Of a DNA stretch of 64,000 nt, positions 10,126-49,111 are shown in pieces. Source of the DNA: an uncultured Bacilli bacterium (GTDB lineage Bacteria > Bacillota_I > Bacilli_A > RF39 > UBA660); NCBI GenBank assembly GCA_934096075.1, contig CAKOLN010000005.1, positions 15,103 to 79,102 of the forward strand. The letters run 5' to 3'. The translations under genes were made by a program, and so were the position numbers. Under the pieces are notes generated by a model that was given only the letters and a program-made list of their open reading frames with translations, was not told where the DNA came from and did not search any database. The first letter of the stretch is position 1; each line of letters starts with the position of its first letter.

Positions 10126-11493
10126 TTATTTAGTAGGTATTAATATTTCTTGTCCAATTGATAATGTTGAACCAGATAGATTATTAATATTTTTTAATTC
10201 ATTAACTGTAACTCCATATGTGTTTGCAATTTTCCAAAGCGAATCACCTTTTTTAACTTTATATGTGGTATAAGATTCAGTACCAGGTATTTTCAATACT
10301 TGTCCTATTTGTAGTGTATTTGAAGATAAGTTATTTAAACTTTTTATATCATTTACACTAACACCATATTTATTAGCAATTGTATATAAATTATCACCTT
10401 TAACTACTACATAATTAATTCCAGCCGAAGTTGTTGGTTCTTTTTCTTCAACTTTTGTGTCAGATACAGGTATTAATAATTTTTGTCCAACATATATAGT
10501 GTTACCTGTAAGTTTATTTGCGCTTTTTATTCTATCTACTGTGATTCCATAACTGTTTGCTATTTTAGAAAGAGAATCTCCTGCCTTTACTGTGTATTCT
10601 ATTCCTTTTGGCTCTTCTTTTACATCTATTTCTATGTTTTCTGTTTTAGGTATTAGTAATTGTTGATTAATAGTTAATGTTGTTCCTTTCAAGTTGTTAA
10701 TATTCATTAATGTATCTACAGTAGTATTATATTTATTAGCAATTTTCCAAAGTGAATCACCAGATTTAACTGTATAAATTAAATAGTCTTCTACTGGTTT
10801 TTCTTCATCAAGCTTAACTTTTAAATTTTGTCCTACTGTAATTGTATTTGTTTTTAGGTTATTTAGATTTTTTAATTCTTCAACTGTTATACCGAACTTG
10901 TTAGCAATTTTCCAAAGTGAATCACCTTTTTGTACTGTATAATATGAACCTTCAACAGGCGCAGTATAGGGAAGATTTTTATATTTAGTTATTGCTCTTA
11001 CAACTGCTTCTGCATAATCTTTATAATTATTTTTTAATTGATTGACATCATCACCTTTTGAATCTAGAAAACCATATTCAACAATCACTGCTTCTGTATC
11101 TGGTGTGTTTCTGTGAATAAAATAATAATCTTTTACTGGGTTACTTGGAAGTCTTTGTTGATAATTCTTTCTTATATTTTGACCTTCACTTTCTAATTCT
11201 TCTAATATTGTATTAGAAAACTTTGAATTGTTTCTAAGAGCATAAATTACTTCAGCACCATCACCACCTCCTGCATTTATGTGATTACTAATAACAACTA
11301 CATCTTTACCTGTACCATAAGCATTTTTAATTCTATTGGTTCTATCAGTACTATCTATTGTTTCATCTGTAGTTCTTGTCATTGTAACAGGAATGCCTAA
11401 TTCTCTTAATCTATCATACATATACTTACTTATCAAAAGTGTAAGATCTTTCTCAATTATACCATTACCACTAGCACCAGGATCCGAACCTCC
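10126..11493 (-). pseudogene. N-acetylmuramoyl-L-alanine amidase (Amidase_3 + 5 LysM repeats): 3' portion of a gene interrupted by the integrated element
   Basis: The ORF track starts it at a TTG at 11436, but the frame stays open upstream to 11520 and encodes ...PIPRHGGSDPGASGNGIIEKDL (Amidase_3 DPGHGG..DPGA motif) with no ATG or GTG. Five YTV(K/Q)KGDSLWKIANKYG LysM repeats are present. The missing N-terminus MALKGVVIDAGHGG is found at 20643..20685. Confidence 0.7.
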
Positions 11494-11530
11494 GTGTCGG
11501 GGTATCGGAAAAGTCCAAATTTATTATTAT

Positions 11531-11920
11531 TTATATTTCTACTAGTTCTTTTGAATCTAACATAGATTTTGTTAAGTTTGTTGAAGAAACTATGGTTTTA
11601 TTGTCCCAGTAATTTAATAATTTATCTTTGTTTTCTTTAACCCATTTAATAGCAATATTTTTATTTTTATTTGGAATATTTCCAGCTAGAACTTTAAAAT
11701 CTAGTAATGAAATAGAAATTTCATATTTATCATATATTGCATGTACATGTGGAGGATTATGGTCACTAGTATAAACATAAAATTTTATACCTTTTTCTTC
11801 TCCTAATCTCTCTCTTATCTCATACACTTCAAATACATCTCTATAAAAATTTCTTATTTCTATTGGAATACCAAAATAATGCATTTCTTCTACTTTCATA
11901 ACTACTACCTCAAAATTCAA
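11531..11920 (-). CDS. DUF4160-family protein
   Basis: KFYVYTSDHNPPHVHAIYDKYEISISLLDFKVLAGNIPNKNKNIAIKWVKENKDKLLNYWD carries the HxPPHxH core of DUF4160. Confidence 0.45.
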   Translation of the reverse strand: MNFEVVVMKVEEMHYFGIPIEIRNFYRDVFEVYEIRERLGEEKGIKFYVYTSDHNPPHVHAIYDKYEISISLLDFKVLAGNIPNKNKNIAIKWVKENKDKLLNYWDNKTIVSSTNLTKSMLDSKELVEI

Positions 11921-13535
11921 AATTCCATTCTATTTCAATATCTCTTGTTTTATTTTCTTTATCATATTCTCCAATATATACTTTATCAATAAACTCATCT
12001 AATATAATTTTATTAAGTTCTTTTATATGTTTATATTTCTTTAATACGCTATCAGCATTTTTCTTTTCTTTCTTTTCAATTTTCAACTCATCAATTTGTT
12101 TATCTATTATTTCAATTCTTTTCATCATATTTTCTATTTCATTGAAATAATCTTTTGACATCATCTGAAACATATCTTCAGAAATAACTCCCTTAACTTT
12201 TTCCTCAAAAAGATTTCTATAATAAGTTTTATTATTACTTATTTTTTTATTTAAATCTTCTTTTTCTTGTATTAGTGCTTTTATTGAATTGTTATTATCT
12301 GTATCTTGTTCTTGTCTGTTTTCATAGAGTTCTTTTAAATTATTCTTATCATAGTAATTATCTAATAAATCATTAATAGCATTTAATAATATTTCTTCTA
12401 AACTATCCATTCTAATTACTTTATTATTAGGACATATATGAAACTTTTTATTACCCTTACATTGTAGATATGCTCTTTTACCTGTCTTTTCACTTTTAAC
12501 ACTATAAACATTTCTCATAAATGCTTTATCACAACAACTACAATATACTTTTCTAGTAAAATAATTTATTTGTCCTGTTTTAGTAACTTTGTAATGTGTT
12601 CCTAATATTGATTGTACTTTATTCCATGTTTCCATATCTATAATTGGTTCATGGGCATTCTCAATTCTAATCCAATCTTTTTTAGGTACTTTCATAGGTT
12701 TATGATTTTTATAACTTACATAAGTTGTTTTTCCTTGAACTAAATTGCCTATATAAACTTCATTTTTTAACATTTGAGCAATTGTATCAGGATTCCATCT
12801 AACTGTCTTTAAATTGCAATTACAACATACAAATTTGCTACCTTTTTGCTTTTTATAAACAGATCTAGGTGAAATATTATTATTGTTTAGATATTCACAT
12901 ATTCTATGATAACCATATCCATCTGCATACATTTTAAATATCTTTTTAACTACTTCTGCGGCTACTGGATCAACAACTAACTTATGTCCATCTTCATCTC
13001 TATCATAACCATATGAGGCAAAGCTACCCATAAATAAACCATCTTCTCTTTTATTCTTTAAAGACTTTCTAATATTTTGTGATAAGTCATCTAAATACCA
13101 TTCATTAATAAGTCCATTTATTTGTCTTGATTTCTTGTTAGATTCAATACTTGTATCAGCATTATCAATAATACTTACAAATCTAACTCCCCATTCAATA
13201 AACTTATTATGTAGATATCTTTCAATAACTTCCATATCTCTTGAAAATCTAGATTGTGATTTACATAAGACTAAATTAATCTTACCATTTTTACAATCAT
13301 TTATAAGTCTTTCAAAATCTGGCCTATAAGTTCCTGCTCCAGAAAAATCATCATCAGAATATATATCTACAACATCCCAACCATTTTGATTGGCATATTT
13401 TAAACACATACTTCTTTGATTTATTATACTATCACTATCATCAGTTTTATTTAGTTTATCTCTATCTTCATCAGATAATCTACAATATACACCTACCTTT
13501 TCCATCATAGCCATTCCTCCAATACATTGGAACAA
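11910..13535 (-). CDS. large serine recombinase (resolvase/invertase catalytic domain + recombinase + zinc-ribbon domains)
   Basis: VGVYCRLSDEDRD...INQR is the catalytic Ser region. It is followed by INLVLCKSQSRFSRD, a CCNCN...C zinc ribbon and a C-terminal coiled coil, 541 aa in all. The true start is probably MEKVGVY near 13505. The gene lies about 400 bp from the left junction. Confidence 0.8.
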   Translation of the reverse strand: MFQCIGGMAMMEKVGVYCRLSDEDRDKLNKTDDSDSIINQRSMCLKYANQNGWDVVDIYSDDDFSGAGTYRPDFERLINDCKNGKINLVLCKSQSRFSRDMEVIERYLHNKFIEWGVRFVSIIDNADTSIESNKKSRQINGLINEWYLDDLSQNIRKSLKNKREDGLFMGSFASYGYDRDEDGHKLVVDPVAAEVVKKIFKMYADGYGYHRICEYLNNNNISPRSVYKKQKGSKFVCCNCNLKTVRWNPDTIAQMLKNEVYIGNLVQGKTTYVSYKNHKPMKVPKKDWIRIENAHEPIIDMETWNKVQSILGTHYKVTKTGQINYFTRKVYCSCCDKAFMRNVYSVKSEKTGKRAYLQCKGNKKFHICPNNKVIRMDSLEEILLNAINDLLDNYYDKNNLKELYENRQEQDTDNNNSIKALIQEKEDLNKKISNNKTYYRNLFEEKVKGVISEDMFQMMSKDYFNEIENMMKRIEIIDKQIDELKIEKKEKKNADSVLKKYKHIKELNKIILDEFIDKVYIGEYDKENKTRDIEIEWNFEF

Positions 13536-13575
13536 CTACGAATAATTTTAAATACAAGTATATTATATATCATTA

Positions 13576-13719
13576 TTACGAATTATTTAATCCTAATTTT
13601 TGATTTTCTAGCTTTATAATGATATTTAACAATTTTCTATTAAATAAATCTTTTAATTCTTCATTAGTTTTATTTTCATTGTTCTTAAATTTATATTTTA
13701 CATTATATACTACCTCCAT
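13576..13719 (-). CDS. small ORF (47 aa) immediately upstream of the recombinase; candidate directionality/regulatory factor
   Basis: It encodes MEVVYNVKYKFKNNENKTNEELKDLFNRKLLNIIIKLENQKLGLNNS with a strong RBS, AAAGGGGGT. It is below the ORF-track length cutoff. Confidence 0.25.
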   Translation of the reverse strand: MEVVYNVKYKFKNNENKTNEELKDLFNRKLLNIIIKLENQKLGLNNS

Positions 13720-13799
13720 TTTCTATTTACCCCCTTTTCTTTAATTATAAATTAAATACTCCTTTCATAGACATCTTCTCCTTTGATTCTATAATTTAT

Positions 13800-14339
13800 C
13801 TATTGTATTTCATCTAATTGTTTATCAAATTCTATAGATTCTTCTTCGGTCATTGGATCTGATTTGCACACTTCAGGATGTTCCATCCAATAAGGTACAA
13901 TTTCTTCTCGTTTAAATTTATTTATTTTTTTATATTCATTTTTATATTTATTATTTATATTATGGTCACAAGTTTCTGCTACCATATCATTACAATTTTT
14001 TGCTACTTGGTTCGCAACTTTTGTTGGTATCTTTTCAGTATTAAGATATATTCTACGATTATTATTTTCATATTTTACTATGATATATTTTAATCGTTTT
14101 ATTTTAGACAATGAATCGCTAATTGTTCTTTTTGAAACTTTTACATAGTCTGCTAAATACTCATTACTCGCATAACAATATCCATTTTTCAAGGTAAGTG
14201 AAATGATAAGACCTAAAACACTACAATCTGTTTTAGATAAATTCCTATCATTAAATAATATTCTTGGAGTCATAATAAATTCACAATCTAATATAATAAT
14301 AGTTCTCCTATCTAATAAATATGGGCTTTTCCATTCCAA
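13800..14339 (-). CDS. phage/plasmid replication-organiser-like HTH protein
   Basis: TDCSVLGLIISLTLKNGYCYASNEYLADYVKVSKRTISDSLSKIKRLKYII is a winged-helix motif like phage replisome organiser N-terminal or RepA_N domains. Confidence 0.35.
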   Translation of the reverse strand: MEWKSPYLLDRRTIIILDCEFIMTPRILFNDRNLSKTDCSVLGLIISLTLKNGYCYASNEYLADYVKVSKRTISDSLSKIKRLKYIIVKYENNNRRIYLNTEKIPTKVANQVAKNCNDMVAETCDHNINNKYKNEYKKINKFKREEIVPYWMEHPEVCKSDPMTEEESIEFDKQLDEIQ

Positions 14340-14486
14340 ATTTTGAGCAATAATATCCTAAGGGGGATTTTTTATATCTTCCCCTAAAGATATTATTTTG
14401 ATTTATTCTATATATCTTATAGAAAAGGTACTAACATAAATCTCCGAACATTTACTGTACCTATATTTACTAGTGATTTTATCGTT

Positions 14487-14750
14487 CTAGTAAATGTGAT
14501 ATTCGTATAATCCTGTATCGTATTCTTTATAAACTAGATATTTGTTTTTTTCTAATATCTTTAGATTATTTCTAAATCCGATATTGGTTATACTTTTTAG
14601 CTCCCTTTGTATTCTTCCAATGCTTATATGTGAGATAGTTCTTTCAAATCCCTCTGCAAATAGATAAGCATATATTTCTTTTGCTTCAGGTTTGATGTTT
14701 TTATCCCTCCATATCCTATGGTTTGAAATATCTAGGTGCTTTATTCTCAT
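14487..14750 (-). CDS. small HTH-like protein
   Basis: The 87-aa ORF contains ISHISIGRIQRELKSITNIGFRNNLKILEKNKYL. It is divergent from the XRE regulator. Confidence 0.3.
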   Translation of the reverse strand: MRIKHLDISNHRIWRDKNIKPEAKEIYAYLFAEGFERTISHISIGRIQRELKSITNIGFRNNLKILEKNKYLVYKEYDTGLYEYHIY

Positions 14751-14904
14751 TCATCTCTGTTCCTCCTTTCCCACCGATGAGTTTTACATCAATTTCTTAT
14801 TGAGTATATCATCACATAATGAGTTTGTCAACACTATAATTGCAAAAATGTATTGATTTTTACATCACTATGTGTTATACTTATTTCAGTCGAGGTGGTA
14901 TTAG

Positions 14905-15453
14905 ATGAAAAAACAGACTACTGAATTAGGTAAACTAGTAAGTGAAACAAGAGAAAAACTAGGTATTTCACAAAGAGAACTTGCCAGAAGATCAAATATG
15001 GATTGTGCTGAAGTATCTCGTATAGAGGCTGGTAAAAGATTAAAACCAAACATCCTATACTTAAAAGGAATTGCTGAAACTCTTAATTTAAGTATGGTAG
15101 ATTTAATGAAACTTGCTGGTTATAATGATATAGATATAAATTGGGGTAAAGATTTATCAGTTAAAAGATCAACTGCTGACTATCAACGACAAATAGAAAG
15201 TTATGAAAAATTTTATTTCGATGCACTTGATCATTTTGAAGAAAATAGAAAAGTTGATTTTGCTATTAAAGGATGTATTGCTGATTTAATTGATAAATTA
15301 GAATTAGCAAAAATAAAAAAAAAGGAAATATCTAATGATGAAATATTAGATAGATTAAAGGAAATAATTTCTATGATTAGACCAAATTTAGAAAAATTTG
15401 ATAAGTCTAAATATCCATCATTTGATAGTGCATTATTTCCAAAAAGAAAATAA
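14905..15453 (+). CDS. XRE-family transcriptional regulator
   Basis: LGISQRELARRSNMDCAEVSRIEAGKR is an HTH_XRE motif. Its position resembles a phage-like regulatory switch. Confidence 0.6.
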   Translation: MKKQTTELGKLVSETREKLGISQRELARRSNMDCAEVSRIEAGKRLKPNILYLKGIAETLNLSMVDLMKLAGYNDIDINWGKDLSVKRSTADYQRQIESYEKFYFDALDHFEENRKVDFAIKGCIADLIDKLELAKIKKKEISNDEILDRLKEIISMIRPNLEKFDKSKYPSFDSALFPKRK

Positions 15454-15705
15454 CCTTAGTACATTAATTGTATTAAGGTTATTTTTATATAAAGAATACG
15501 TGGCACGTTTTGATCTGTAAGGTTGAAAGTGGCGATAGTATTCTTTCTTTTTTATAAAACGCAAGTTGTAATAAAAAAGGCGACATTACTACTTACGATT
15601 AGTTTGTAGTTTTGTCGCTTAAATGGGGTTCAAAGGGGTATTTATCCCTTGCCCACTGTTATTGGCTATGCCAATAGCGTAGTGGGTTACTATAATGGAA
15701 TTATA

Positions 15706-15746
15706 GTAAAAAGGCAAACTAATTTATTTAGTTTTGCCTTTTTGAG
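15706..15746. terminator. bidirectional terminator between the convergent XRE gene and 15724..16404
   Basis: aaaaAGGCAAACTaatttatttAGTTTTGCCTtttt has A/T runs on both sides. Confidence 0.55.
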
Positions 15747-16404
15747 GACTACCATTATAATAAAATGTTCTTGATTCAAAATCGATATAAGTTGGTATTC
15801 CTTTTTCTTCTAGTAAATGAAGTAAAACTTGTAAATCTATTAAAGGTGAAGTAGCAATCCCCTCTTGAATAAGGTGCACAAACATTCTGTCTGTCTTGGA
15901 AAGATCTTGTGATACCTTATTATCCCCATACATTTCTTTAAATGCTCTTTCAAAGACATCTCTTCCATATGTTTCTATAATTCTATCAGTATCAAATTCA
16001 ATTCCTACTATTTCATAAGGAATAATTCTATTTCCTTCAGGGACTTCAGCACTAGACGCAATTTTCATTGTTCCTTCTCTTACGCTTTCTAAAAACATAC
16101 GATATCTTTTATCTAATGTTTGGTCTTTATTTTGTTCGTTTTTTGTTTTGTTTGTAGTTTCAAATCCTACATCATCAAATGCTTTTAAATATTTACTAGT
16201 TTCTGGAACATAAAATAATAAAGCATCCCTTTCTTTAGAAGTTAATGTATATTCTGGTTTTAACATTCCTCTTTCATCATATTGATCATTTGCACTTAAT
16301 TTAGAGATAGCTCCCATATATGCACTTCCATATTTAAGTTCCATGTAATCTCTTAAATCTTTCATTGCTTTTGCATGTTGCTCGTTCAAATTACTAAAAG
16401 CCAT
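15724..16404 (-). CDS. hypothetical protein (226 aa)
   Basis: The ORF is acidic with no recognisable motif. Confidence 0.3.
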   Translation of the reverse strand: MAFSNLNEQHAKAMKDLRDYMELKYGSAYMGAISKLSANDQYDERGMLKPEYTLTSKERDALLFYVPETSKYLKAFDDVGFETTNKTKNEQNKDQTLDKRYRMFLESVREGTMKIASSAEVPEGNRIIPYEIVGIEFDTDRIIETYGRDVFERAFKEMYGDNKVSQDLSKTDRMFVHLIQEGIATSPLIDLQVLLHLLEEKGIPTYIDFESRTFYYNGSPQKGKTK

Positions 16405-16480
16405 TTATATCACCTCCATTAACTTAATTATAACACAGATTTGAGAATATTCTTAATAAAATTATAAATTTTTACATTTT

Positions 16481-17750
16481 TTATAGACTTATTTCATAAT
16501 CGTCTTTATCTTTTTCCTGATAATATGATTTTTTTCTAGTTTTGTAATAACCAGGTATATCTGCATAATCAAATAATTCATCTTCTTTGGTTGTTCCTTT
16601 AGATATATCATAAACATCATTTGAATTAAATTCTTTACTATCATAATAGTCTTTTATTTCAATTGTAGTAGTTTCTTTTACAAGTTCATTACCAATTTGT
16701 AATAAATTCCTAAAAAACTCTTTAATTACCTTTAAAATGGCTTCTAATCGTGTGTTTAGTTTAGTGTTATCTTTAGAAAGTTTATTAACTCTAGCATTTA
16801 GTACCTCGTTTTCCTTTTCTAAAGTTTGATGACTTTTAGTATAGTTATCAACTTCATTAAATAATTGTTGTAATTTAGGTTGAAACTCTATTGCTTTTTT
16901 ACTTTCTTTAATAACTTTATTCATACTTTCAAAAGTATCTTTTTCTACTAATACGTGCGTTTTGCTAAAAGGTATATTTTTTGTAGTTTTCATCTTTTCT
17001 TCAAAAACGTTCATAGCATTATCTATTCTAGTATTTATTACCTTAACTTTGTTTTCATAATATCTAGTAGTTTTCTTTAATTCTTTTGTTTTTTGATGTT
17101 TAGCATTACTACCTTTAATACCACGTTCTAAATCATATCCTTTTTCAGTTAGTCTTTTATGATATTTATCCTGTAATTCTGATAAATGATATTTATCTCT
17201 TATATATTGTTTTTTAGATATAGTATATCTTTCTGTATTTGTTCTTTTATCATACTTTTTTACTAGTGGAATAACTACACAATGCAAGTGTGGTGTTTCT
17301 TCATCTAAATGAATAGTAGCGTGTAATACTTGTGATTTTGTATAACCTAAATTTTTATAAACAAATTCCATACAAGTATTAGCCCAATCAATAATATCAT
17401 CTTTATTCATATTCTCAAAAAAATTATGGGTAGCAGTAAATAATAGTTCATCTGCAACAACATTTTTTGATTTATTTAACATTTGACTATAAGTCTTTTT
17501 TCTTTCTTGTCTTTCTGTCTTTTGTCTTTCATTGTGTTCTTTTTCATATTCCTTAGTTAATTCTTTAAAACCTTTAACATATTTAGATTCAAGTGGTACT
17601 AACTCAATGTTATCATCTTTTAATTCTAATTTAATATCAGGATTAGATTTATAAGCCTGTTTTTCTCTTTTATTGTGTGATCCGATTTGTGCTAAATCAT
17701 TTAAAGTCATAATCTGTTGACTTCTAAATATTGCATAATTTAAATTCATT
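16481..17750 (-). CDS. MobV-family (Mob/Pre, pMV158 MobM-like) relaxase
   Basis: The N-terminus is MNLNYAIFRSQQIMTLNDLAQIGSHNKREK...NPDI. The HxDExTPHxH metal motif appears as HATIHLDEETPHLHCVV, and the C-terminus is a coiled coil. The likely start is the ATG at 17748-17750, with RBS GGAAGGAGAG. The track ORF begins 26 codons earlier at 17827. Confidence 0.75.
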
Positions 17751-17776
17751 TTATCTCTCCTTCCTTTGCATACGAA

Positions 17777-17800
17777 AAAAGATACTTTTTCAAGTATCTT
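17777..17800 (-). terminator. palindromic hairpin terminator (AAGATACTT-N4-AAGTATCTT + T-run), copy 1; lies in the 70-bp gap immediately upstream of mobV (candidate oriT region)
   Basis: The minus strand reads AAGATACTTgaaaAAGTATCTTTTTTCG. An identical 24-nt core is at 20563..20586. Confidence 0.5.
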
Positions 17801-17820
17801 AAATTTAATAATAAAATAAT

Positions 17821-18621
17821 TTAACATTTAATTTTTACTGATTTTTCTTTAAATTTAAAATCATTTTCACTATCCTGTTGATAAATATTAAGAACAAATT
17901 TATCTCTTTCTGTATGAAATACTTGATTAAAGATATTTATATTTGTGGAAGCAGGAGTTGATAAAAATAAGTTATAATTCCAACAATACTGTTTAGTACT
18001 TTGTACCTCTTTAATAAGTATTTCTATTAGTTCTTGAGACTTTGTTCTAATTCCTTTATCTCCTTCTCTAGTTATACTTATGGTATAACTATCTATTATT
18101 TTTTGTGGAAGTTTTGCTTCTATAATAGGATATGTGTCAGATATTATAATGTTTATTTGTTTAGTATTTTTGTTGCATTTTCCTTTACGACTTACTTTAT
18201 ACTTATAATTACGATTTGAATATTCTGTATTATCAAAGCATTCCAACTTATTTATATTCAACAATTGAAATTGTAAAGGGATGGGTTTCATCTTTAAATT
18301 AACTTTTCTATAGCCTGTAATTAGCCAAGCAATATAATAAATAATAATATGATAATCTCCATAAATGTCAGTAGGAGCATATTCTTTATCCTTATTTAAA
18401 CGTCTATATATAATTAAAAATCCAAAAAACAATAGTACACAAGCTACTCTTCTAAAATGATTGAACGTTATTTTTGATAATTCAATTAAAAATCCATTTC
18501 CCTCATAATCAACAATTTTAAATATTGATGATAAACCTATTGATGTAATAGCAATTAATAATATTGGTAAAACTATCGTTCTCACTGGGTATAAGAATTT
18601 TTTAATTTTTTTCATGTTCAA
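17821..18621 (-). CDS. two-TM membrane protein with ~190-aa C-terminal domain; candidate effector of the nucleotidyltransferase cassette
   Basis: TM1 is LPILLIAITSIGLSSIFKIV and TM2 is VACVLLFFGFLIIYRRL, followed by a soluble C-terminal domain. Its start overlaps the upstream gene stop by 20 nt. Confidence 0.4.
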   Translation of the reverse strand: MNMKKIKKFLYPVRTIVLPILLIAITSIGLSSIFKIVDYEGNGFLIELSKITFNHFRRVACVLLFFGFLIIYRRLNKDKEYAPTDIYGDYHIIIYYIAWLITGYRKVNLKMKPIPLQFQLLNINKLECFDNTEYSNRNYKYKVSRKGKCNKNTKQINIIISDTYPIIEAKLPQKIIDSYTISITREGDKGIRTKSQELIEILIKEVQSTKQYCWNYNLFLSTPASTNINIFNQVFHTERDKFVLNIYQQDSENDFKFKEKSVKIKC

Positions 18622-19042
18622 TACCTCCTCCTAACCATTTTCCTGTTATTCGCCAAAGCTCATAAAAATATAACCAATCAATCGTCCATGGTATGATTGT
18701 ATCTGCCAGAAACATATCCCTTGACCATTCCTGATATTTTGGATAATACAAGCACACCTTTACATATTCATCATCTTTATTATTATAATGCCTTCTATAA
18801 CAATGAGGAATATATTCATCTTTTTTTGTCATAATACCTTGATTGTATAAGTAAACCTCTGGTGTTATACCATTATATTTTACTGTAATATCATAGGCTC
18901 TAGATAATTCAGATGGTCTTACTCTTTGTTTCCAAATTAGATTTCCCATTCCTAGCTTACAATCAAGGCAATCATACTTTGATTTAAGATTTAATAACTG
19001 AATTGCAACATTCTTTGGCTTTTTAAAAAATTTATTTGCCAA
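18602..19042 (-). CDS. 146-aa Cys/His/aromatic-rich protein of unknown family, middle gene of the cassette
   Basis: It carries CLDC...HCYRRHY...C...IPWTIDWLYFYELWRITGKW. Its start overlaps the NTase stop by 11 nt. Confidence 0.35.
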   Translation of the reverse strand: MANKFFKKPKNVAIQLLNLKSKYDCLDCKLGMGNLIWKQRVRPSELSRAYDITVKYNGITPEVYLYNQGIMTKKDEYIPHCYRRHYNNKDDEYVKVCLYYPKYQEWSRDMFLADTIIPWTIDWLYFYELWRITGKWLGGGIEHEKN

Positions 19043-20198
19043 AGAATGTATGCTCCTTTACTTTAGTATCAGTTTTATTAGCAGTAATTGTTGCAATATT
19101 TTTCCTATCAATATATCTTTCACTCATGGATGAATTTCTTTTTTCAAATACATTTGTTATTGTTTTGTTTCCAAACACTTTTTTTAGATAATTAGTCTTT
19201 TCAGTTATATCATCAAATATCATAAAGTTATTCGTAATTAAATCATATTTTAAGTTTTCTACCCAGTTAAAAAACGCCTCTTGCCTTTCTGGATATATTT
19301 TCCATTTATCAGCAAAATTTTCATTTTTATTAACAGGATTTGGAATAACATAATTTCCGTTAGAGTCTATTTCTATGTACTCTTCATACGATGTACAAAA
19401 CTTATCAATTAAATCCAAAATACTTTCATTTCCAGAATACATTTTCCCAACTAAAGTCGTTATTATAATTGATATTGGTTTACATTCTTTTTCTTCATCA
19501 GTAGCATTAGCATATTGTATATCTCTATGTCTTTTTAATATTTGAATTGCTTTTTGAAGAGTAGTTCTAATTCCAAAATTTCTCAAATCTTCAACTTTAT
19601 TTGAGAATTGTCGATTCTTTATTCTATATAAATTTCTTCGTTCGTTCTCTTGTAATTTATCAAACCAATCTGCATATGCTTCAGGATTAGATACCATATA
19701 TTTATAGCTGTTATTCTCTTTATGTGTTATTTTTATTGATTTGTCAGTTATGTTATTTGGTATTGATGGCAATATATCCATATGAAAATGTGAATCATCA
19801 GAATAATTTAATGTCCAACACCTTTTTCCCTCATCAGCTAACATTTTTTTATATCTTTCACTTTTCTTTAAAGCATTACCAACTAATTCTTTTAAATCTT
19901 TTGGAGAATCAAAATTGTTATGTATTTTACAAACAGCATCTAAATCATAATCATCATCATCGCCTATAGGTTTTATTAAAGTTCCAAGATTCATTGATCC
20001 TTGTGGATAAACTTCAACAGGGTATTCAATATTGTTTTCCAAAAATTCTCCTAATGCTTTATAACTCCTTTTTGCATTTTCAAACACACTATCTGATATA
20101 TTGAGTTCTTCTGCTATATTTTCATAAATCTCGTTTATTATTTCTTTATCTTTCATCTTTAGCCTCCTTATCATAATAAACAAAAGAGGCAACACCAA
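19032..20198 (-). CDS. cGAS/DncV-like nucleotidyltransferase (CD-NTase / SMODS-type, Pol-beta superfamily)
   Basis: YPQGSMNLGTLIKPIGDDDDYDLDAV has the GS-x9-13-DxD layout. A third acidic site HFHMDILPS lies about 65 aa downstream. The protein is 388 aa, and the RBS is AAGGAGG. Confidence 0.6.
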   Translation of the reverse strand: MVLPLLFIMIRRLKMKDKEIINEIYENIAEELNISDSVFENAKRSYKALGEFLENNIEYPVEVYPQGSMNLGTLIKPIGDDDDYDLDAVCKIHNNFDSPKDLKELVGNALKKSERYKKMLADEGKRCWTLNYSDDSHFHMDILPSIPNNITDKSIKITHKENNSYKYMVSNPEAYADWFDKLQENERRNLYRIKNRQFSNKVEDLRNFGIRTTLQKAIQILKRHRDIQYANATDEEKECKPISIIITTLVGKMYSGNESILDLIDKFCTSYEEYIEIDSNGNYVIPNPVNKNENFADKWKIYPERQEAFFNWVENLKYDLITNNFMIFDDITEKTNYLKKVFGNKTITNVFEKRNSSMSERYIDRKNIATITANKTDTKVKEHTFFGK

Positions 20199-20562
20199 CC
20201 ACCATTTAAAGCGGTTTATTCAAGTAAATAAAAATACATATTGATCTTCTTCCTAGTTAGAATATGTAAACCAATATGCACTACATTTATTATACAATTG
20301 ACTTTTAAAATCATTTTGTGTTAATATTAATATAGGAATTGATTTATTCATTCATTCAATTCTCCAAATATTTCTTTTAAATATTTGCTTTTTAATTTAT
20401 TGGGTAGTTGGGTGCTACCTATAAGGAAATATGCTTTTGCTCTTAAGCATATTTTTTTGTCGTTTATTGACATACGTTCCTTATAAGGACAATATACCAC
20501 AAAAATGTGTTATTAGCAATAGAAATGCATCAGTGCTAATTGTTTTTTTATTTAAATTGTTA

Positions 20563-20586
20563 AAAAGATACTTTTTCAAGTATCTT
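20563..20586 (-). terminator. copy 2 of the palindromic hairpin terminator, ~60 bp inside the right end of the element
   Basis: The minus strand reads AAGATACTTgaaaAAGTATCTTTTTAACAATTT. It is positioned to stop read-through from the host amidase promoter into the cassette. Confidence 0.5.
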
Positions 20587-20642
20587 TAAACTTTTGCATT
20601 TATTATTATTCATAGTCATTCACTTATTTTGGATTTATCCTA

Positions 20643-20685
20643 TTCCTCCATGCCCAGCATCAATAACAACACCTTTTAACGCCAT
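20643..20685 (-). pseudogene. 5' fragment of the split amidase gene (MALKGVVIDAGHGG-IG*)
   Basis: The RBS AGGTGA is at 20691-20696 and the ATG at 20683-20685. The frame ends 2 codons past HGG, at the junction with the element. Confidence 0.65.
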
Positions 20686-40774: not shown

Positions 40775-41203
40775 CTATAATTCTATCTTTTCTGGCTTTT
40801 GAGCAACTTGCTTATATTCAGAACCTTCATAAACATATAAATTTCTAAACATATCTCTACCTAAAGTATTCTTAGGAAGCATTCCTTTAACAGCTCTTTC
40901 AACCATTTCAACTGGATAATCTTTCTTCATTGTTCTAGCAGTTCTTTCTCTTAAACCACCTGGAAAACCACTATGGTTGTAATAAACTTTTTTATCAAGT
41001 TTATCACCAGTAAGATTAACTTTACCAGCATTAATAATAACAACTGCATCTCCACAGTTAATGTGAGGTGTATAAGTAACCTTATGTTTACCTCTTAAAA
41101 TATGTGCTGCTTTAGTAGCAACTCTACCAAGATTTTCTCCTTCAGCATCTATAAGATACCATTTAGTAGAAACATCTTCTTTTCTTAACATAAATGTCTT
41201 CAT
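40775..41203 (-). CDS. rplM: 50S ribosomal protein L13
   Basis: [23 protein letters not shown] is the L13 signature. Confidence 0.95.
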
Positions 41204-41434
41204 AATATCTCCTTCTTTATCCTTATATTATATGACTTCCCACATCAATAACACAAGAACTTAAAAAATGTACCGAGTATCATTATACATAAACTAATGA
41301 TAAAAGTCAAATAAAATAGTACAAAAAATCATAAAATTTACTAATATATGTGTAAAATTTTAATATTGACAAACTAAAAGTATCATTATAAAATTAAAAC
41401 TAGATAAAAGAATAAAAAATTGGAGGAATAATAA

Positions 41435-42565
41435 ATGAAAAAAAGATCAAGCGGAGTTTTAGTAATTATAATAATAATGATAATTTTGTCTCTTTCTGGA
41501 GGTGTTGTGGGACTGTTAGCAAACATGAACCAAAACAACAATAAACCAAAAGATGACACTAAACCAAAAAATTACGAAATTACCTATAGATATTATATAG
41601 ACAGCGAAGAAGTTAACAAAGAAAAGATAGATGATAGTAAAGAAAAAATAATAGAATGTGACTTAGTAGCAAATCCAACTTGTGTACCAGGGACTAAGCA
41701 AGATGCCACAATTAAATTTGAAAAGTATACTTGTACTAACAATGTTAAAGGTGAATGGATTGATGAAAATTGGGAATTCACTCCTGATTTAACTGCTAAT
41801 ACAACTTGTAGACTTTACTTTACAAACTTAATTCATGATGTCAAATTCACAGTTACCAATGGTTCTTTACCAGTGGAAAATCCAGAAGGTATAATAAAAA
41901 ATAGACTAGGTGAAGATAGTACTATAATAATAACACCAACTACAGGATATAAATTTGATAAAGCTGAATGTGACAATAATGCTACTGCTGAATTTAATCA
42001 AGAAACTAATTTATTAACAGTTAAAAATGTAACAAAAAATACAACATGTACAATATCATTTAAAATTAATGATTACACAGTTGAAGTTAAAACCTCAAAT
42101 GGGACATCATCAGAAGAACCTAAAAGTGCTAATTATGGTGGAACAGTAACATTTAATGTTACTCCTGCTGAAAACTACGGGGATGCAATTGTAACATGTA
42201 CTAATAATCAAAAAGCAACTTTCGTAAATAATGTATTAACTGTATCAAGCATAACAAGTGATACTGTATGTACAGTTCAATTTAAGCCATTAAAACATAC
42301 AGTTAACTTAACTGTAGTCAATGGAACATTAGGAATAAATAATAGTCCACAAACAACACAAGATGGTGGAACAGTTTCATTTGACGTAACAAAATCAGAA
42401 GGATTTGGATTTACTAATCACGAATTAACCTGTGATGTAGAAGGACAAAAAATAGAATTGCAAAGTAATGGAACAAGTACAGCTATGGTATTCGTATATA
42501 ATGTTAAAGGAAATTTGAACTGTAAGTTGGTACTAAAGAAAATAGAAACTGAAACGAACAACTAA
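41435..42565 (+). CDS. secreted/membrane-anchored protein with ~4 repeated ~80-aa Cys-containing domains
   Basis: It has an N-terminal TM or signal. The pattern NTTC(R/T)(L/I)xF(T/K)xN...TV recurs four times. There is no LPXTG. Confidence 0.4.
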   Translation: MKKRSSGVLVIIIIMIILSLSGGVVGLLANMNQNNNKPKDDTKPKNYEITYRYYIDSEEVNKEKIDDSKEKIIECDLVANPTCVPGTKQDATIKFEKYTCTNNVKGEWIDENWEFTPDLTANTTCRLYFTNLIHDVKFTVTNGSLPVENPEGIIKNRLGEDSTIIITPTTGYKFDKAECDNNATAEFNQETNLLTVKNVTKNTTCTISFKINDYTVEVKTSNGTSSEEPKSANYGGTVTFNVTPAENYGDAIVTCTNNQKATFVNNVLTVSSITSDTVCTVQFKPLKHTVNLTVVNGTLGINNSPQTTQDGGTVSFDVTKSEGFGFTNHELTCDVEGQKIELQSNGTSTAMVFVYNVKGNLNCKLVLKKIETETNN

Positions 42566-42625
42566 GTTCGTTTTTTCTTGTTTAAAATATAACTTTATTA
42601 TATAATTAACACACGGTGATTTAAA

Positions 42626-43603
42626 ATGAAATGGAAAATTGGTAATGTAGAAATTAAAAATCAAGTAGTATTTGCACCTATGGCTGGTGTTTCCAATATA
42701 AGTTATAGACAAATAATAAAAGAAATGGGAGCCGGTCTTATATATTCAGAAATGATTTCTACAATGGGTATAGTTTATAATGGAAAAAAAACAATAGATT
42801 TAATTAACTTTAACGAAAATGAAAGACCAATAAGTATTCAAATATTTGGAAGTGACTTAAAATCATTTGTAGAAGCTGCAAAATACATAGAAGAAAACTT
42901 TCATCCAGATATAATAGATATTAACATGGGTTGTCCTGTACCTAAAGTTGCTATTAAAAGTCAAGCAGGAAGCGCATTACTAAAAGATCCTGACAAAATA
43001 TATGAAATAGTAAAGGCTGTTGTTAATAGCACAAACACACCAATAACAGTAAAAATCAGAAGTGGATGGGATGATAAACATATAAATGCTGTAGAAGTTG
43101 CACAAAAAATAGAAAGTGCTGGTGCATCAGCTATCGCAATTCATGCTAGAACTAGAAGTCAAGGATATTCAGGTAGTGCTAATTGGAATATAATTAAAGA
43201 AGTTAAACAATCTGTTAAAATACCAGTAATAGGTAACGGAGATATAACAACTCCAGAACTTGCAAAACAAATGCTAAATGAAACTGGATGTGATGCAATT
43301 ATGATAGGACGCGCTACTTTAGGTAACCCCTGGATAATAAAAGAAATAGTTCACTATCTAGATACCAATGAACTACTTCCAAAACCAACTAAGATAGAAA
43401 GAATAGAAATGATAAAAACACACTACAATTTATTAAAAAAATATTCAAATACTACACATGCATTATTAGAAATAAGAACCCATGCACTATGGTATTTAAA
43501 AGGTATACCAGGTACAAAAGAAATAAAAACTAAAATATGTCAGGCTAAAACAGAAGAAGAATTTATGAATATCATAAAGGAATTAAATGTACTAGTAAAA
43601 TAA
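42626..43603 (+). CDS. dusB: tRNA-dihydrouridine synthase
   Basis: VFAPMAGVSNISYRQI...DINMGCPVPKV...IHARTRSQGYSG is Dus family. Confidence 0.85.
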   Translation: MKWKIGNVEIKNQVVFAPMAGVSNISYRQIIKEMGAGLIYSEMISTMGIVYNGKKTIDLINFNENERPISIQIFGSDLKSFVEAAKYIEENFHPDIIDINMGCPVPKVAIKSQAGSALLKDPDKIYEIVKAVVNSTNTPITVKIRSGWDDKHINAVEVAQKIESAGASAIAIHARTRSQGYSGSANWNIIKEVKQSVKIPVIGNGDITTPELAKQMLNETGCDAIMIGRATLGNPWIIKEIVHYLDTNELLPKPTKIERIEMIKTHYNLLKKYSNTTHALLEIRTHALWYLKGIPGTKEIKTKICQAKTEEEFMNIIKELNVLVK

Positions 43604-43806
43604 TTTCTAGAAAAGATTAGAAATACATAGATTAAAATATTAAAATCATCATTCCGGATTTTTGACGTTTTCGTCCTTTTTACGTAATAATCTTAACAAT
43701 TATACTATTACCAGGCACATTTTCTCCAAAAAAAGTAATACTTAATTTAGGAAAACTTGAATATCAATAATACATTTAACTATTTAGTTTTATAACACAC
43801 ACCCGA

Positions 43807-43835
43807 TTGACAAAACAACATTAATATAGTAAAAT
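43807..43835 (+). promoter_or_regulatory. sigma-A promoter TTGACA-17-TAAAAT for the lysS leader
   Basis: TTGACA is at 43807-43812, the spacer is 17 nt and TAAAAT is at 43830-43835. Confidence 0.5.
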
Positions 43836-43844
43836 ACCCATAGA

Positions 43845-44050
43845 AATCAAAGAGAAGGACGAGTAATATCAATTCTTATCATAGAGAATTAGTGGTTGGT
43901 GTAAACTAATATAAGAATAATATGAATAAAACCTTTGAGAGGCTTATGCCCGGTTAAATACCGTTATAATGAAAGAGTCAGTTAATGATAAGAAAGGTGG
44001 TACAGTGAACCCAAAGTTTGCCCTTTTGTCATTAACTTTTTTTATTAAGA
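43845..44050 (+). promoter_or_regulatory. T-box riboswitch leader upstream of lysS
   Basis: The 220-nt leader has AAUUAGUGGUUGG early on and a T-box-like GAAAGGUGGUACAGUGAACC at 43990-44009. A U-run (aacttttttt) lies ahead of the RBS GGAGG. Confidence 0.45.
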
Positions 44051-44065
44051 AGGAGGAATAAAATA

Positions 44066-45535
44066 ATGGAAAATTTAACAGAACAAGAAATTGTAAGGAG
44101 AGGAAAACTAGATAATATTAAAGAATATTGTAATCCGTATCCAGAAAAATATGAAAGAACACATACATTAAAAGATGCTAAAACTTTAAATGATGGAACA
44201 CAAGATGTTAAAATTGCAGGAAGAATAGTATTCATGAGAAAAATGGGTAAACTAAGTTTCATTAAAATAAGAGATATTGAAGAAAGCATGCAACTTGAAT
44301 TTAAGGTAGATACTTTAGGTGAAGAAAAATATGACTTCATGAAAAAATTAATTGATACAGGAGACTTTATAGGTGCTGAAGGAGAAATATTCACAACTCA
44401 AACTGGAGAAAAAACCCTAAGAGTTCATAACTTTACTTTCCTAGGTAAAGCGCTTAAACCATTACCAGAAAAATTCCATGGATTACAAGACACAGAATTA
44501 AAATATAGACAAAGATATGTTGACTTAATAACAAATGAAGAAAGTAGAAAAGTATTTCTAGGTAGAAGTAAAATGTATGCATTCATACATAAGTACCTAA
44601 ACGAAAATGGATTCCTAGAAGTTGAAACACCTATAATTCAAACCGCAGTATGTGGCGCTAGTGCAAAACCTTTCTATACTCATCACAATGCATTAGATAT
44701 AGATTGTAATTTAAGAATCGCTCCAGAAACTTATTTAAAACAATGTATATCAGGTGGATTTGATCGTGTGTATGAAGTAGCTAAATGCTTTAGAAATGAA
44801 GGTATGGATCCACAACACTTACAAGAATTCACACAAGTTGAATGGTATGTTGCATATTGGAATTTTGAAGATACAATTGTATTCTATAAAAACTTTATAA
44901 AGAATATGTTACTAGAATTAGTAGGTACAACAACAATTGAATATCAAGGAAACACATTAGATTTTGGAAAAGATAAATGGCCAAGAATTAATTATATTGA
45001 AGAAATGAATAAAATATTAGGATTTGAATTCTTAGACATAGAAGATCCATTGGTATTAAAAGAAAAAATAAATGAAAAAGGTTTATTTACTTTACAAGAT
45101 TTAAATGATTACAAATCAGTAAGTCAAATAATAGACTATGTATACAAAAGAAAAATTAGAGAAAATATAATGGAACCTACTATTATATATAACTACCCTT
45201 CTATCATGATGCCACTTACAAGAAGAAACGACATTAATCCAAAAGCATCAGATATGTTCCAAGTAGTTGCCGCAGGTACTGAACTTTGTAAAGCATATTC
45301 AGAATTAGTTAATCCATTTGATCAAAGAGAAGCATTTGAAAGTCAAATGAAAGCTAAACAACAAGGTGACGATGAAACTATGGAATTAGATGAAGGATTC
45401 CTAGGTTCTATGGAACAAGGAATGCCACCTATCTCAGGACTAGGATTTGGAATAGATAGACTAATGATGCTTATCTATAACCAAGAATCTGTAAGAGATG
45501 TAGTATTATTCCCTATGATGAAACCAGAAAATTAA
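44066..45535 (+). CDS. lysS: lysyl-tRNA synthetase (class II)
   Basis: It has an OB-fold N-domain and class II motifs (FRNEG, GLGFGIDRLMML). Confidence 0.95.
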   Translation: MENLTEQEIVRRGKLDNIKEYCNPYPEKYERTHTLKDAKTLNDGTQDVKIAGRIVFMRKMGKLSFIKIRDIEESMQLEFKVDTLGEEKYDFMKKLIDTGDFIGAEGEIFTTQTGEKTLRVHNFTFLGKALKPLPEKFHGLQDTELKYRQRYVDLITNEESRKVFLGRSKMYAFIHKYLNENGFLEVETPIIQTAVCGASAKPFYTHHNALDIDCNLRIAPETYLKQCISGGFDRVYEVAKCFRNEGMDPQHLQEFTQVEWYVAYWNFEDTIVFYKNFIKNMLLELVGTTTIEYQGNTLDFGKDKWPRINYIEEMNKILGFEFLDIEDPLVLKEKINEKGLFTLQDLNDYKSVSQIIDYVYKRKIRENIMEPTIIYNYPSIMMPLTRRNDINPKASDMFQVVAAGTELCKAYSELVNPFDQREAFESQMKAKQQGDDETMELDEGFLGSMEQGMPPISGLGFGIDRLMMLIYNQESVRDVVLFPMMKPEN

Positions 45536-45560
45536 AAAGAGGCAAAACCTCTTTTTTTTA
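45536..45560. terminator. bidirectional terminator shared by lysS and the convergent lipoprotein gene
   Basis: aaaAGAGGcaaaaCCTCTttttttt. Confidence 0.6.
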
Positions 45561-46409
45561 ATCATCAGAATCTTTAGTTAAACTAAGAGTTAAATTCATT
45601 ATATTTTCTTCATACCAAATTTCAATACCATTGTTTTCCTTATTTGTAGCTTCAAAAATATAATCTTCATATTGTTCAATATTAACAAATCCACTTTCTT
45701 TTAACTTATTAACATACTCAAAATAATCATCTTTTGAAACACCAACCGCATAAAATGAAAAATCTTCTTCATCAGAATCTATAACTGCATAATATTTAAA
45801 ATCAGGCACTGGTATTAATTTAGAAAGTTCTGTTTTAGGCCAAACATTTAAATCAATAGTAGTTTCATCAATTCTCCAACTTTTATCTACAAAACTATAA
45901 TATGCTAAATACAACTTTTTATCTTTACCAATTACACCTATTTGAACTTCATTAAGTTCCATCAAATCAAATTGTTCCTTACTTGGTGTATCATACCAAC
46001 TATAATTATTATAACCTATTGTTAACATAACATTTCTAGTTGTACTCCCTTTCTCAATCAATTCATCTGTATTACCTCTTAATGTTACATCTCTTTTAGA
46101 ATCATCTTCATCAATAAACCAATCATGATCTTTCATAAATTCATCATATAAGCTTAACATTTCTTCTGTAACATCATCTTTAACCTTATATTTAAAATTT
46201 ACACTAATTAAATCGTATTTAGAATTATTTGTAAATTCAACTATATAACAATCAAAACCACTACACTTACTTTTTTCTGCATTAAAAGCAAAATCCTTTA
46301 TATTTAAATCTTTAGTACTTAATGTCTTATTAATTAAGGTGGTCTTATTTCCACATCCAGTCAAAACTATTCCTAAAATCACTAATAATATAAATTTAAT
46401 CTTTTTCAT
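45558..46409 (-). CDS. lipoprotein, unknown function
   Basis: It has an LTGCGN lipobox. The protein is 283 aa. Confidence 0.4.
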   Translation of the reverse strand: MKKIKFILLVILGIVLTGCGNKTTLINKTLSTKDLNIKDFAFNAEKSKCSGFDCYIVEFTNNSKYDLISVNFKYKVKDDVTEEMLSLYDEFMKDHDWFIDEDDSKRDVTLRGNTDELIEKGSTTRNVMLTIGYNNYSWYDTPSKEQFDLMELNEVQIGVIGKDKKLYLAYYSFVDKSWRIDETTIDLNVWPKTELSKLIPVPDFKYYAVIDSDEEDFSFYAVGVSKDDYFEYVNKLKESGFVNIEQYEDYIFEATNKENNGIEIWYEENIMNLTLSLTKDSDD

Positions 46410-46422
46410 AAAATTTCACCTA

Positions 46423-46803
46423 TTACCATGCAGTAAATCCTTTTAACTTATATGACGCAATAGTTTCAGCATCTCCACTACATATAGCTTTTATTTTCCA
46501 AGTACCATTTGCATCCAAATTGTTAATATTATCTAAACAACTACCAACAACATTTCCATCTGCATCATAAGTATTAAATTCAACCTGTACATATGAATAC
46601 TCTGTACTTGAATTATTTTTTACAGTGCCCTCGATATAATAAGAAATAAAATAATCATCAGCATAGCCTCTATCTTCTAACAAAGTAAAATCATTCTCAT
46701 TTTTTAACTCTGATTCTATATCTTCCATACTACATCCTGTAATAAAAAATATAAACATAAATAATAAAAATATTTTTTTCATTTTAAACTCCTTTTCAAT
46801 CAA
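46423..46803 (-). CDS. lipoprotein, unknown function
   Basis: It has an ITGCSM lipobox. The protein is 126 aa. Confidence 0.4.
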   Translation of the reverse strand: MIEKEFKMKKIFLLFMFIFFITGCSMEDIESELKNENDFTLLEDRGYADDYFISYYIEGTVKNNSSTEYSYVQVEFNTYDADGNVVGSCLDNINNLDANGTWKIKAICSGDAETIASYKLKGFTAW

Positions 46804-47175: not shown

Positions 47176-47229
47176 ATTTTTTAATTAATTTATGTAATAA
47201 TAGTTAATTAGAAAGGAGTATGGTCTTCT

Positions 47230-47469: not shown

Positions 47470-47605
47470 AAATTAGAGTTTCTCCTCTAATTTTTTTAAA
47501 TTGTTCCAAACATTATACCATTTTATATGGTATTTTTGTGAAAATTGCATAAATTCTTGTAAAACTTTACATAAATATTGTATAATTAGTCTAGGAGGTA
47601 GAAAA

Positions 47606-49033: not shown

Positions 49034-49111
49034 AAATAATTAATCACTCCTAACCCGAGTGATTTTTTTTGCATAAAAATTTATAAAACACACCAATATA
49101 ACATAGAATAT

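Follow-up and report, generated by a model that had tools for sequence, protein, structure and literature searches.

A three-gene cassette of an uncultured Bacilli bacterium is very probably a type II-short (E2-only) CBASS operon carried by an integrative mobilisable element

E2-only CBASS is a recognised class that has been reported from 616 genomes (PMC12948482), and its mechanism has been studied in S. marcescens (bioRxiv 10.1101/2022.05.25.493364). The S. marcescens E2-CBASS consists of a cyclase (SmCdnG, a cGAS), the E2 protein SmE2, an exonuclease and a 2TM-SAVED protein (PDB 8HSB, 8YJY and 9KKB). In this system both H87 and C101 of SmE2 are required for covalent linkage and immunity, and the cyclase (SmcGAS) ends in G406-E407 (10.1101/2022.05.25.493364). 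The cyclase carries an E2-binding motif, an extra C-terminal alpha-helix plus a three-stranded beta-sheet, which is reported to be absent from E1E2/JAB systems (PMC12948482). Anti-phage activity has also been shown for a lactococcal plasmid system (pUCCL620_245-247) that combines an E2-like protein of 155 aa, a CD-NTase/SMODS protein of 383 aa and an SUa-2TM effector of 286 aa (PMC11381338). Type I CBASS has a further membrane effector, Cap14 (Saf-2TM plus SAVED), a chloride channel gated by 2',3'-cGAMP (PMC10402079; PDB 9OM7).

Here, we analysed a stretch of 64,000 nucleotides (the window) from an uncultured Bacilli bacterium, in which three overlapping minus-strand ORFs fill exactly positions 17821-20198. 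A previous reading of the sequence had taken these ORFs for a CBASS-like cassette composed of a CD-NTase and two unrecognised partners. The features of the cassette are as follows.

19032-20156, minus strand: CD-NTase gene of 374 aa (388 aa in the longest ORF, which reaches a TTG at 20198)
20163-20167, minus strand: GGAGG ribosome-binding site, 6 nt 5' of the CD-NTase ATG at 20156, read from the sequence
18602-19042, minus strand: stand-alone E2-like regulator gene, 146 aa, with a TTG start at 19042
17821-18615, minus strand: effector gene, 264 aa, whose ATG overlaps the end of the E2 gene by 14 nt

Two of the gene starts were revised. The CD-NTase likely starts at ATG 20156 behind the GGAGG and has 374 aa rather than 388, and the most likely start of the effector is ATG 18615, 8 nt past GGAGGAGG, which gives 264 aa and not 266. 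The exact 374-, 146- and 264-aa products were found in a public protein collection, whereas the 388- and 266-aa versions had no exact copy there. At its start, the E2 gene overlaps the stop of the CD-NTase gene by 11 nt. Both downstream genes overlap their upstream neighbour, as had been noted before, and the arrangement is compatible with translational coupling. A promoter scan yielded no convincing promoter and a number of sites below that of shuffled sequence. Taken together, our analysis suggests that the trio is very probably a type II-short (E2-only) CBASS anti-phage operon travelling as cargo of an integrative mobilisable element, with its function assigned by homology. According to profile and structure matches, each of the three proteins falls into a family found in the characterised system, and the predicted catalytic and recognition residues are intact.

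The features of the carrier, which the earlier reading had already considered mobilisable, are listed below.

11489-20649, strand not applicable: integrative mobilisable element of 9,156 bp, delimited by two GGAGG cores (11489-11493 and 20645-20649)
11910-13535, minus strand: large serine recombinase gene (Pfam Resolvase, Recombinase, Zn_ribbon_recom and DUF4368)
16481-17749, minus strand: MobV/Pre-family relaxase gene, 422 aa from an internal ATG (Pfam Mob_Pre, 4.2e-27)
17776-17803, strand not applicable: palindromic hairpin of 28 nt with a T-run, located after the effector stop and before the mob start; direct repeat
20562-20589, strand not applicable: second hairpin copy on the upstream side of the cassette, with the 5' fragment of the amidase on one side and the promoter region of the CD-NTase gene on the other

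The relaxase gene lies directly downstream of the cassette, and the same 422-aa mob gene is called on identical contigs. The element splits an Amidase_3/LysM gene within the codons for DAGHGG|SDPGA: the 5' fragment of the amidase, MALKGVVIDAGHGG, is found at 20685-20644, and the 3' part picks up at 11493. Locus L004 shows the same junction within another amidase gene, and the contiguous junction sequence is present where other organisms have an intact amidase gene. The element appears to target the conserved core of cell-wall amidase genes that encodes DAGHGG. A metagenome scan with the reconstructed empty site returned 15 contigs, all with intact amidases of other organisms (68 bp of similarity), and no empty site of the same species. 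Megablast of the whole element against plasmids gave no match, and Rfam had no match within the window. With a relaxase and a site-specific recombinase, no conjugation machinery and junctions within a host gene, the element is best classified from its gene content as integrative and mobilisable. The neighbours of the cassette are the amidase fragment, Mob_Pre, an unknown 226-aa protein, HTH proteins and the recombinase, none of which matched PADLOC; nor did Pfam, PADLOC and PHROGs reveal E1, JAB, HORMA, exonuclease or further defence genes in the element besides the cassette.

The hairpin at 17776-17803 is terminator-like on the minus strand and marks the downstream boundary of the cassette. 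Its sequence had three matches against 0.12 expected, and it stands at both flanks of the cassette in L001-L005; the terminator scan missed these AT-rich flanking hairpins. In L004, DNA identity falls from approximately 100% over the cassette to 75-87% just past the hairpin, in mob. These identities suggest a swap of the cassette between element backbones that have diverged. Conceivably, small mobilisable elements of one family have a dedicated "defence slot", which the hairpin-bounded cassette would fill.

We found the same trio, in the same order, in seven diverged lineages with unrelated neighbourhoods and with effector identity down to 36%. Relaxase and recombinase genes adjoin the trio in three of the seven lineages (the window with L001-L005, L006-L010 and L017), whereas the homologous trios in L011 and L014 lie away from mob genes. 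A scan of genome contigs with the effector alignment yielded only four loci, all in uncultured Bacilli/Bacillota MAGs. In addition, tblastn of the effector against plasmids gave only six distant matches (25-32% identity), and the one plasmid region examined among them was annotated with hypothetical proteins only.

This distribution bears on the possibility that the trio mainly serves the mobile element, for instance as a module for addiction or stabilisation, or as a means of fighting competing elements. Its position as cargo of a 9.2-kb mobilisable element, its apparent exchange between backbones and the mobilisation genes beside it in the three lineages would fit such a role. However, defence systems are common on mobile elements, so that location does not discriminate between the two readings; moreover, the L011 and L014 trios are not near mob genes, and the characterised relatives act against phages. 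We therefore regard a role centred on the element as improbable and favour anti-phage defence.

The second gene of the cassette encodes a Cys/His/Trp/Tyr-containing protein (4 Cys, 3 His, 6 Trp and 14 Tyr in 146 aa). Several E2 models of PADLOC matched it with E-values from 5e-39 to 3e-19 (best, PDLC00863, 4.7e-39), and a search against PDB aligned its residues 8-141 to SmE2 (8hsb_B, 4.4e-15). A precomputed Pfam match to PF26395 (E2-CBASS) exists for an identical protein, whereas a local Pfam-A copy and NCBIfam gave no match. H80 aligned to H87 of SmE2 and C97 to C101, and this predicted catalytic pair is invariant across all seven lineages. The C-terminal tail is WLGGGIEHEKN, with H143 and K145. 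Judged by these alignments, the protein is a stand-alone E2 of type II-short (E2-only) CBASS.

The third protein matched PF18179, the "SMODS- and Ubiquitin system-associated 2TM effector" (SUa-2TM), at 4.2e-27 with a score of 95.6 bits (cut-off, 25), and the same family is carried by all 36 effector homologues. No Pfam match to Saf-2TM was found at E<=1, SUa-2TM alone being returned, and NCBIfam has no model for either this protein or the E2. Hydropathy shows a clear hydrophobic helix at approximately residues 13-33 and a shorter second one at 55-72; Kyte-Doolittle values above 1.6 were obtained in windows that begin at 6-19 and at 51, in line with a short second helix, and the AlphaFold2 model places helices at 2-29 and 54-74. 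The earlier proposal of a 2TM effector thus holds. Although a sequence search against PDB gave no match, a fold search identified the C-terminal part (approximately residues 85-264) as a SAVED fold. The effector is therefore predicted to consist of two N-terminal TM helices and a compact SAVED nucleotide-sensor domain of approximately 180 residues.

These assignments run against the view of the sequence-only reading that the module is of novel composition, with an uncharacterised sensor/effector pair outside the Cap families. It is true that the local Pfam-A copy missed the 146-aa protein, that NCBIfam covers neither partner and that no public copy of any of the three proteins is named; the lack of names in public records, together with the recent date of the Pfam E2-CBASS family, explains why the partners looked unknown. 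However, the PADLOC, SmE2 and PF26395 matches identify the first partner and PF18179 with the SAVED fold the second, so that both fall into exactly the families (E1/E2/JAB and SAVED) that had been listed as excluded, and the combination has already been described in the literature and tested in other bacteria. On these family matches, a novel composition is refuted. The broader claim that the cassette is CBASS is sustained by the profile searches, the solved structures and the collinearity in seven lineages.

The first gene was correctly recognised as a CD-NTase. Its product matched 15 cyclase models of PADLOC (best, PDLC00780, 1e-114) and, above the cut-off, PF21654 (DncV-like_NTFase) of Pfam. 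Matches in PDB were 9woo_A (1e-47), SmCdnG (8hsb_A, 1e-27) and also BdCdnG (7ljn). For the AlphaFold2 model (pLDDT 89.9), Foldseek gave SmCdnG (8hsb_A) as the best match with a TM-score of 0.77, over the full length and including the E2-binding motif, and the best 50 matches listed were all CD-NTases. In the numbering of the 374-aa protein, the motifs are QGS (52-54), DLD (71-73) and HMD (125-127), of which QGS, D71/D73 and D127 form the GS motif and acidic triad of the Pol-beta NTase core; QGS and D71/D73 align to QGSV 66-69 and D84/D86 of SmCdnG. The GS...DxD motif is common to the whole Pol-beta NTase superfamily, and in principle the gene might encode an NTase without a signalling role, either an antibiotic NTase or an MNT-type toxin, in an operon other than CBASS, but this has next to no likelihood and was rejected, since all profile matches are CBASS cyclases, the solved CdnG structures and Foldseek agree with them, and the partners are CBASS-specific.

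Two further properties of the cyclase concern its clade and its C-terminus. First, SNPEAY (156-161) aligns to SNPSGY of SmCdnG, with lid residues S and Y corresponding to S167 and Y172, and the two nearest named solved relatives (8hsb_A and 7ljn) are both CdnG. The cyclase thus appears clade-G-like on the basis of its nearest solved relatives and two lid residues rather than a phylogeny. Second, the AlphaFold2 model shows at the C-terminus a helix at 330-342 and strands at 347-350, 356-358 and 364-366, followed by a low-confidence tail; helix 330-342 and the three strands within 347-366 form the predicted E2-binding motif. The protein ends in HTFFGK (G373-K374), and HTF[FY]G followed by 1-5 residues is found at the cyclase end in all seven lineages, with the Gly conserved. 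Homologues show this Gly as the penultimate residue in HTF[FY]G[KN], which parallels G406-E407 of SmcGAS.

By homology to the S. marcescens E2-CBASS, the E2 would cut after the penultimate Gly373 of the cyclase, removing Lys374, and would keep the cyclase bound in a thioester or isopeptide adduct. Upon infection, the E2 would permit cyclase-cyclase conjugation, by which nucleotide synthesis would be switched on, and the clade-G-like cyclase (D71/D73/D127) would make a cyclic dinucleotide, most likely 3',2'-cGAMP. The signal would then bind the SAVED domain of the 2TM effector, which would oligomerise and breach or depolarise the membrane, and the infected cell would stop growing or die ahead of phage release. 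Since the tail of the E2 is shorter and has a single Lys past GGG, the isopeptide step may differ from that in S. marcescens. The literature consulted contained no biochemical study of the SUa-2TM membrane module and no report of ion-channel activity for SUa-2TM proteins; the channel data for Cap14 relate to Saf-2TM, a different module. The compact SAVED domain and a membrane module unlike that of Cap14 leave room for an undescribed effector mechanism, and the single Lys and the missing exonuclease partner for simplified E2 regulation; nevertheless, it seems rather unlikely that the effector acts by an undescribed mechanism while the short-tailed E2 regulates the cyclase through a simpler form of the cascade seen in S. 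marcescens.

In our assessment, the trio is a real but ordinary anti-phage signalling cassette, whose combination has already been described and tested elsewhere. The system type is already classified, with profile models for all three proteins, solved structures for two and relatives that have been phage-tested. On the other hand, the locus adds uncultured gut Bacillota of very low G+C to the hosts of E2-only CBASS with an SUa-2TM effector, offers a clean minimal three-gene example without an exonuclease gene, and suggests that small mobilisable elements with integration sites in amidase genes pass on the cassette as a unit.

Comparison with the known systems places the locus as follows. Full type II CBASS (CD-NTase, Cap2 E1-E2 fusion and Cap3 JAB; 7TO3; PMC11153139) likewise has an E2-type cysteine enzyme acting on the cyclase C-terminus, whereas the present operon and its surroundings lack both an E1 domain and a JAB/Cap3 gene. 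The effector resembles Cap14 in architecture; however, the membrane module is Saf-2TM there and SUa-2TM here, and Cap14 belongs to a two-gene system with CdnB rather than to a CdnG-like cyclase with an E2. The S. marcescens E2-CBASS is closer: it provides the best structural match of the cyclase (TM 0.77; 1e-27 by sequence) and an E2 match of 4e-15 with H87/C101 equivalents, and it shares the penultimate Gly followed by one residue at the cyclase end, the helix and three-strand E2-binding motif, an effector with two TM helices and SAVED, and the absence of E1 and JAB. In contrast, it has four genes including an exonuclease where the present operon has three without one, cyclase identity in the structural alignment is only approximately 24%, SmE2 has 162 aa with K151 and K159 as opposed to 146 aa with only K145 past GGG, and its host is an enterobacterium, not a 25% G+C uncultured Bacillota/Bacilli-like gut organism. 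The lactococcal type II CBASS differs in its large plasmid carrier, compared with an integrated mobilisable element here, and in gene order, as its locus-tag order suggests, and it agrees with our locus in having three components of similar protein sizes, a PF18179 effector, a Gram-positive host and a mobile carrier.

Our analysis placed the three-gene cassette at 17821-20198 in the known E2-only kind of CBASS, and the CBASS call previously made from the sequence alone was borne out by the cyclase, E2 and 2TM-SAVED families together with conserved synteny. An ORF scan found the interval filled exactly by three minus-strand ORFs (388, 146 and 266 codons), so that the extent given in the sequence-only reading stood; in place of its lengths of 388 and 266 aa, the most likely starts give 374 and 264 aa. 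The public protein collection contains sequences identical to the 374-, 146- and 264-aa versions and none identical to the 388- and 266-aa versions. The proposed overlap of the two downstream genes was confirmed (11 and 14 nt between neighbouring cassette genes), and thus translational coupling of the three genes is plausible. Features of the cassette and its carrier are as follows.

19032-20156, minus strand: cyclase gene, 374 aa; most likely start ATG 20156, GGAGG six bases before
18602-19042, minus strand: gene of the 146-aa protein; start TTG 19042, read from the DNA
17821-18615, minus strand: effector gene, 264 aa; most likely start ATG 18615, GGAGGAGG eight bases before
17776-17803 and 20562-20589: 28-nt palindromic hairpin with T-run, either side of the cassette
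16921-16940: weaker third hairpin copy
11489-20649: integrative mobilisable element, 9,156 bp, cassette at one end
16481-17749, minus strand: element gene, MobV relaxase (mob)
15724-16404, minus strand: element gene, 226-aa protein, flanked by mob and the HTH regulator
Element gene: HTH_3 regulator
Element genes: two replication-initiator-like HTH proteins
Element gene: large serine recombinase
Element gene: DUF4160 protein

A putative 32-codon ORF, MNKSIPILILTQNDFKSQLYNKCSAYWFTYSN, lies upstream of the cyclase (20253-20351, minus strand) and is an annotated gene on several public cassette-bearing contigs.

The first gene encodes a CD-NTase, as had been proposed. The nucleotidyltransferase motifs quoted for it were located at QGS 52-54, D71-L-D73 and H-M-D127 (374-aa numbering), and the protein matched 15 PADLOC cyclase models (best 1e-114, full length) and Pfam DncV-like_NTFase. 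The nearest solved relative by sequence was bacterial cGAS 9woo_A (1e-47), with CdnG of Serratia marcescens (8hsb_A, 1e-27) and of B. diazoefficiens (7ljn, 7e-16) also matching. For an AlphaFold2 model built from 29 homologues (pLDDT 89.9), the best Foldseek match was SmCdnG from the CdnG-E2 complex (TM 0.77), followed by BdCdnG; all 50 matches listed were CD-NTases, and neither profiles nor structures matched a non-signalling NTase. At its C-terminus the model has a helix (330-342) and three short strands (347-366), then a flexible tail; this arrangement has been described as an E2-binding motif that only E2-CBASS cyclases have (PMC12948482). Across seven lineages the C-terminus is HTF[FY]G plus one residue (plus five in L014, the fourth lineage), which agrees with E2-associated cyclases, where a glycine is conserved as the last residue but one; SmcGAS, for example, ends in G406-E407 (10.1101/2022.05.25.493364).

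The two partners, previously described as unrecognised, proved to be an E2 and a 2TM-SAVED effector. The 146-aa protein had no match in the local Pfam copy, a library older than PF26395 ('E2-CBASS'), which is its precomputed annotation on identical public contigs. Of the ten PADLOC models that it matched, nine were E2 models (best 4.7e-39); the other was a cyclase model of 542 positions, matched at its C-terminal end. Residues 8-141 of the protein also matched the E2 chain in the solved structure of the CdnG-E2 complex from S. marcescens (8hsb_B, 4.4e-15). Counted through the HMMER alignment, H80 and C97 correspond to SmE2 H87 and C101, which are essential for immunity and covalent linkage (10.1101/2022.05.25.493364); both are invariant across the seven lineages. 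The predicted catalytic and recognition residues of E2 and cyclase are intact. The 264-aa protein matched PF18179 ('SMODS- and Ubiquitin system-associated 2TM effector domain', 4.2e-27), PADLOC SAVED_TM (3e-41) and PADLOC 2TM effector models. Its AlphaFold2 model (21 sequences, pLDDT 89.2) has long N-terminal helices (2-29 and 54-74), coinciding with hydrophobic segments, followed by an alpha/beta domain. Thus, the effector is a 2TM-SAVED protein, in line with the earlier suggestion of a 2TM effector.

Cassettes of this kind were compared among seven lineages, listed here by contig or locus.

Lineage 1: L001-L005, the window's own
Lineage 2: L006-L010, relative with an 87%-identical cyclase
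Lineage 3: L011-L013 and L016
Lineage 4: L014
Lineage 5: L015
Lineage 6: L017
Lineage 7: L018

All seven share one gene order, in which the effector gene comes after a SMODS/DncV-like cyclase gene and an E2-CBASS gene, and the neighbourhoods are otherwise unrelated. PF18179 was present in all effector homologues, down to 36% identity. On the metagenome contigs L006-L010, the 87%-identical cyclase/E2/effector cassette is surrounded by other mobile-element genes, namely those of a Mob_Pre relaxase, an rve-family transposase and two large serine recombinases. Some of them have adjoining OLD-family ATPase/TOPRIM and UvrD-like helicase genes, a pair that we read as Gabija-like by domain content.

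The mobilisable carrier suggested previously was recovered with its MobV relaxase and large serine recombinase. It splits an Amidase_3/5xLysM gene inside the DAGHGG|SDPGA codons: a 16-codon fragment, MALKGVVIDAGHGGIG, whose amidase-derived portion is MALKGVVIDAGHGG, lies upstream of the cassette, and the reading frame picks up again as HGGSDPGASGNG... beyond the recombinase, with a GGAGG core at both junctions. Contig L004 has the same junction in a different amidase gene, and a related element in L017 (goat-colon Bacilli MAG; recombinase and relaxase 51-52% identical) also adjoins an amidase gene. A metagenome scan with the reconstructed uninterrupted junction found it in other organisms, where the amidase gene is intact, and found no same-species empty site. 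Excision would restore the amidase gene; in sporulation 'skin'-type elements, such gene-restoring excision is regulated. The 226-aa protein had no match in Pfam, PADLOC or PHROGs and is 100% conserved in the identical elements L001-L003. The hairpin was matched three times (0.12 expected) and may serve as a terminator, belong to an oriT or mark a hotspot of recombination. In L004, DNA identity is ~100% over the cassette and falls to 75-87% directly past the downstream hairpin, inside mob, which suggests that element backbones that had diverged from each other exchanged the cassette. Elsewhere in the window, which is otherwise minus-strand, GC skew and gene orientation turn to the plus strand over ~11 kb (41000-52700).

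At this locus the analysis showed family membership, intact catalytic and recognition residues, predicted folds and conserved synteny; the putative mechanism is modelled on characterised relatives. The E2 would dock on the cyclase C-terminal motif, cut after Gly373 and keep the cyclase bound to itself in an adduct, by a thioester or an isopeptide bond. Infection would then shift the system to cyclase-cyclase conjugation and activation, and the resulting cyclic dinucleotide, most likely 3',2'-cGAMP, would bind the SAVED domain of the effector, which may then compromise the membrane.

E2-only systems are a recognised type II CBASS branch, named 'type II short' (PMC11153139), reported in 616 genomes with cyclases mainly of clade G (PMC12948482). 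Since neither E1 nor JAB genes were found at the cassette or element (Pfam, PADLOC), the present cassette is not full type II CBASS. The novel composition proposed earlier was not upheld: the combination matches E2-only CBASS and a lactococcal plasmid system of SUa-2TM effector, CD-NTase and E2-like protein that is active against lactococcal phages (PMC11381338). It appeared novel because the partners are unnamed in public records and the E2 family is missing from older profile libraries. The S. marcescens operon combines cGAS and E2 with a 2TM-SAVED effector and an exonuclease. It produces 3',2'-cGAMP, and its defence against phage T4 depends on the effector, on the cyclase Gly and on both the Cys and the His of the E2 (10.1101/2022.05.25.493364). 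In contrast, the window's cassette lacks the exonuclease, has a shorter E2 tail and belongs to a gut organism whose G+C content is very low. Finally, the cassette's effector is not strictly a Cap14, since Cap14 has a Saf-2TM membrane module (PMC10402079) and the effector here has SUa-2TM.
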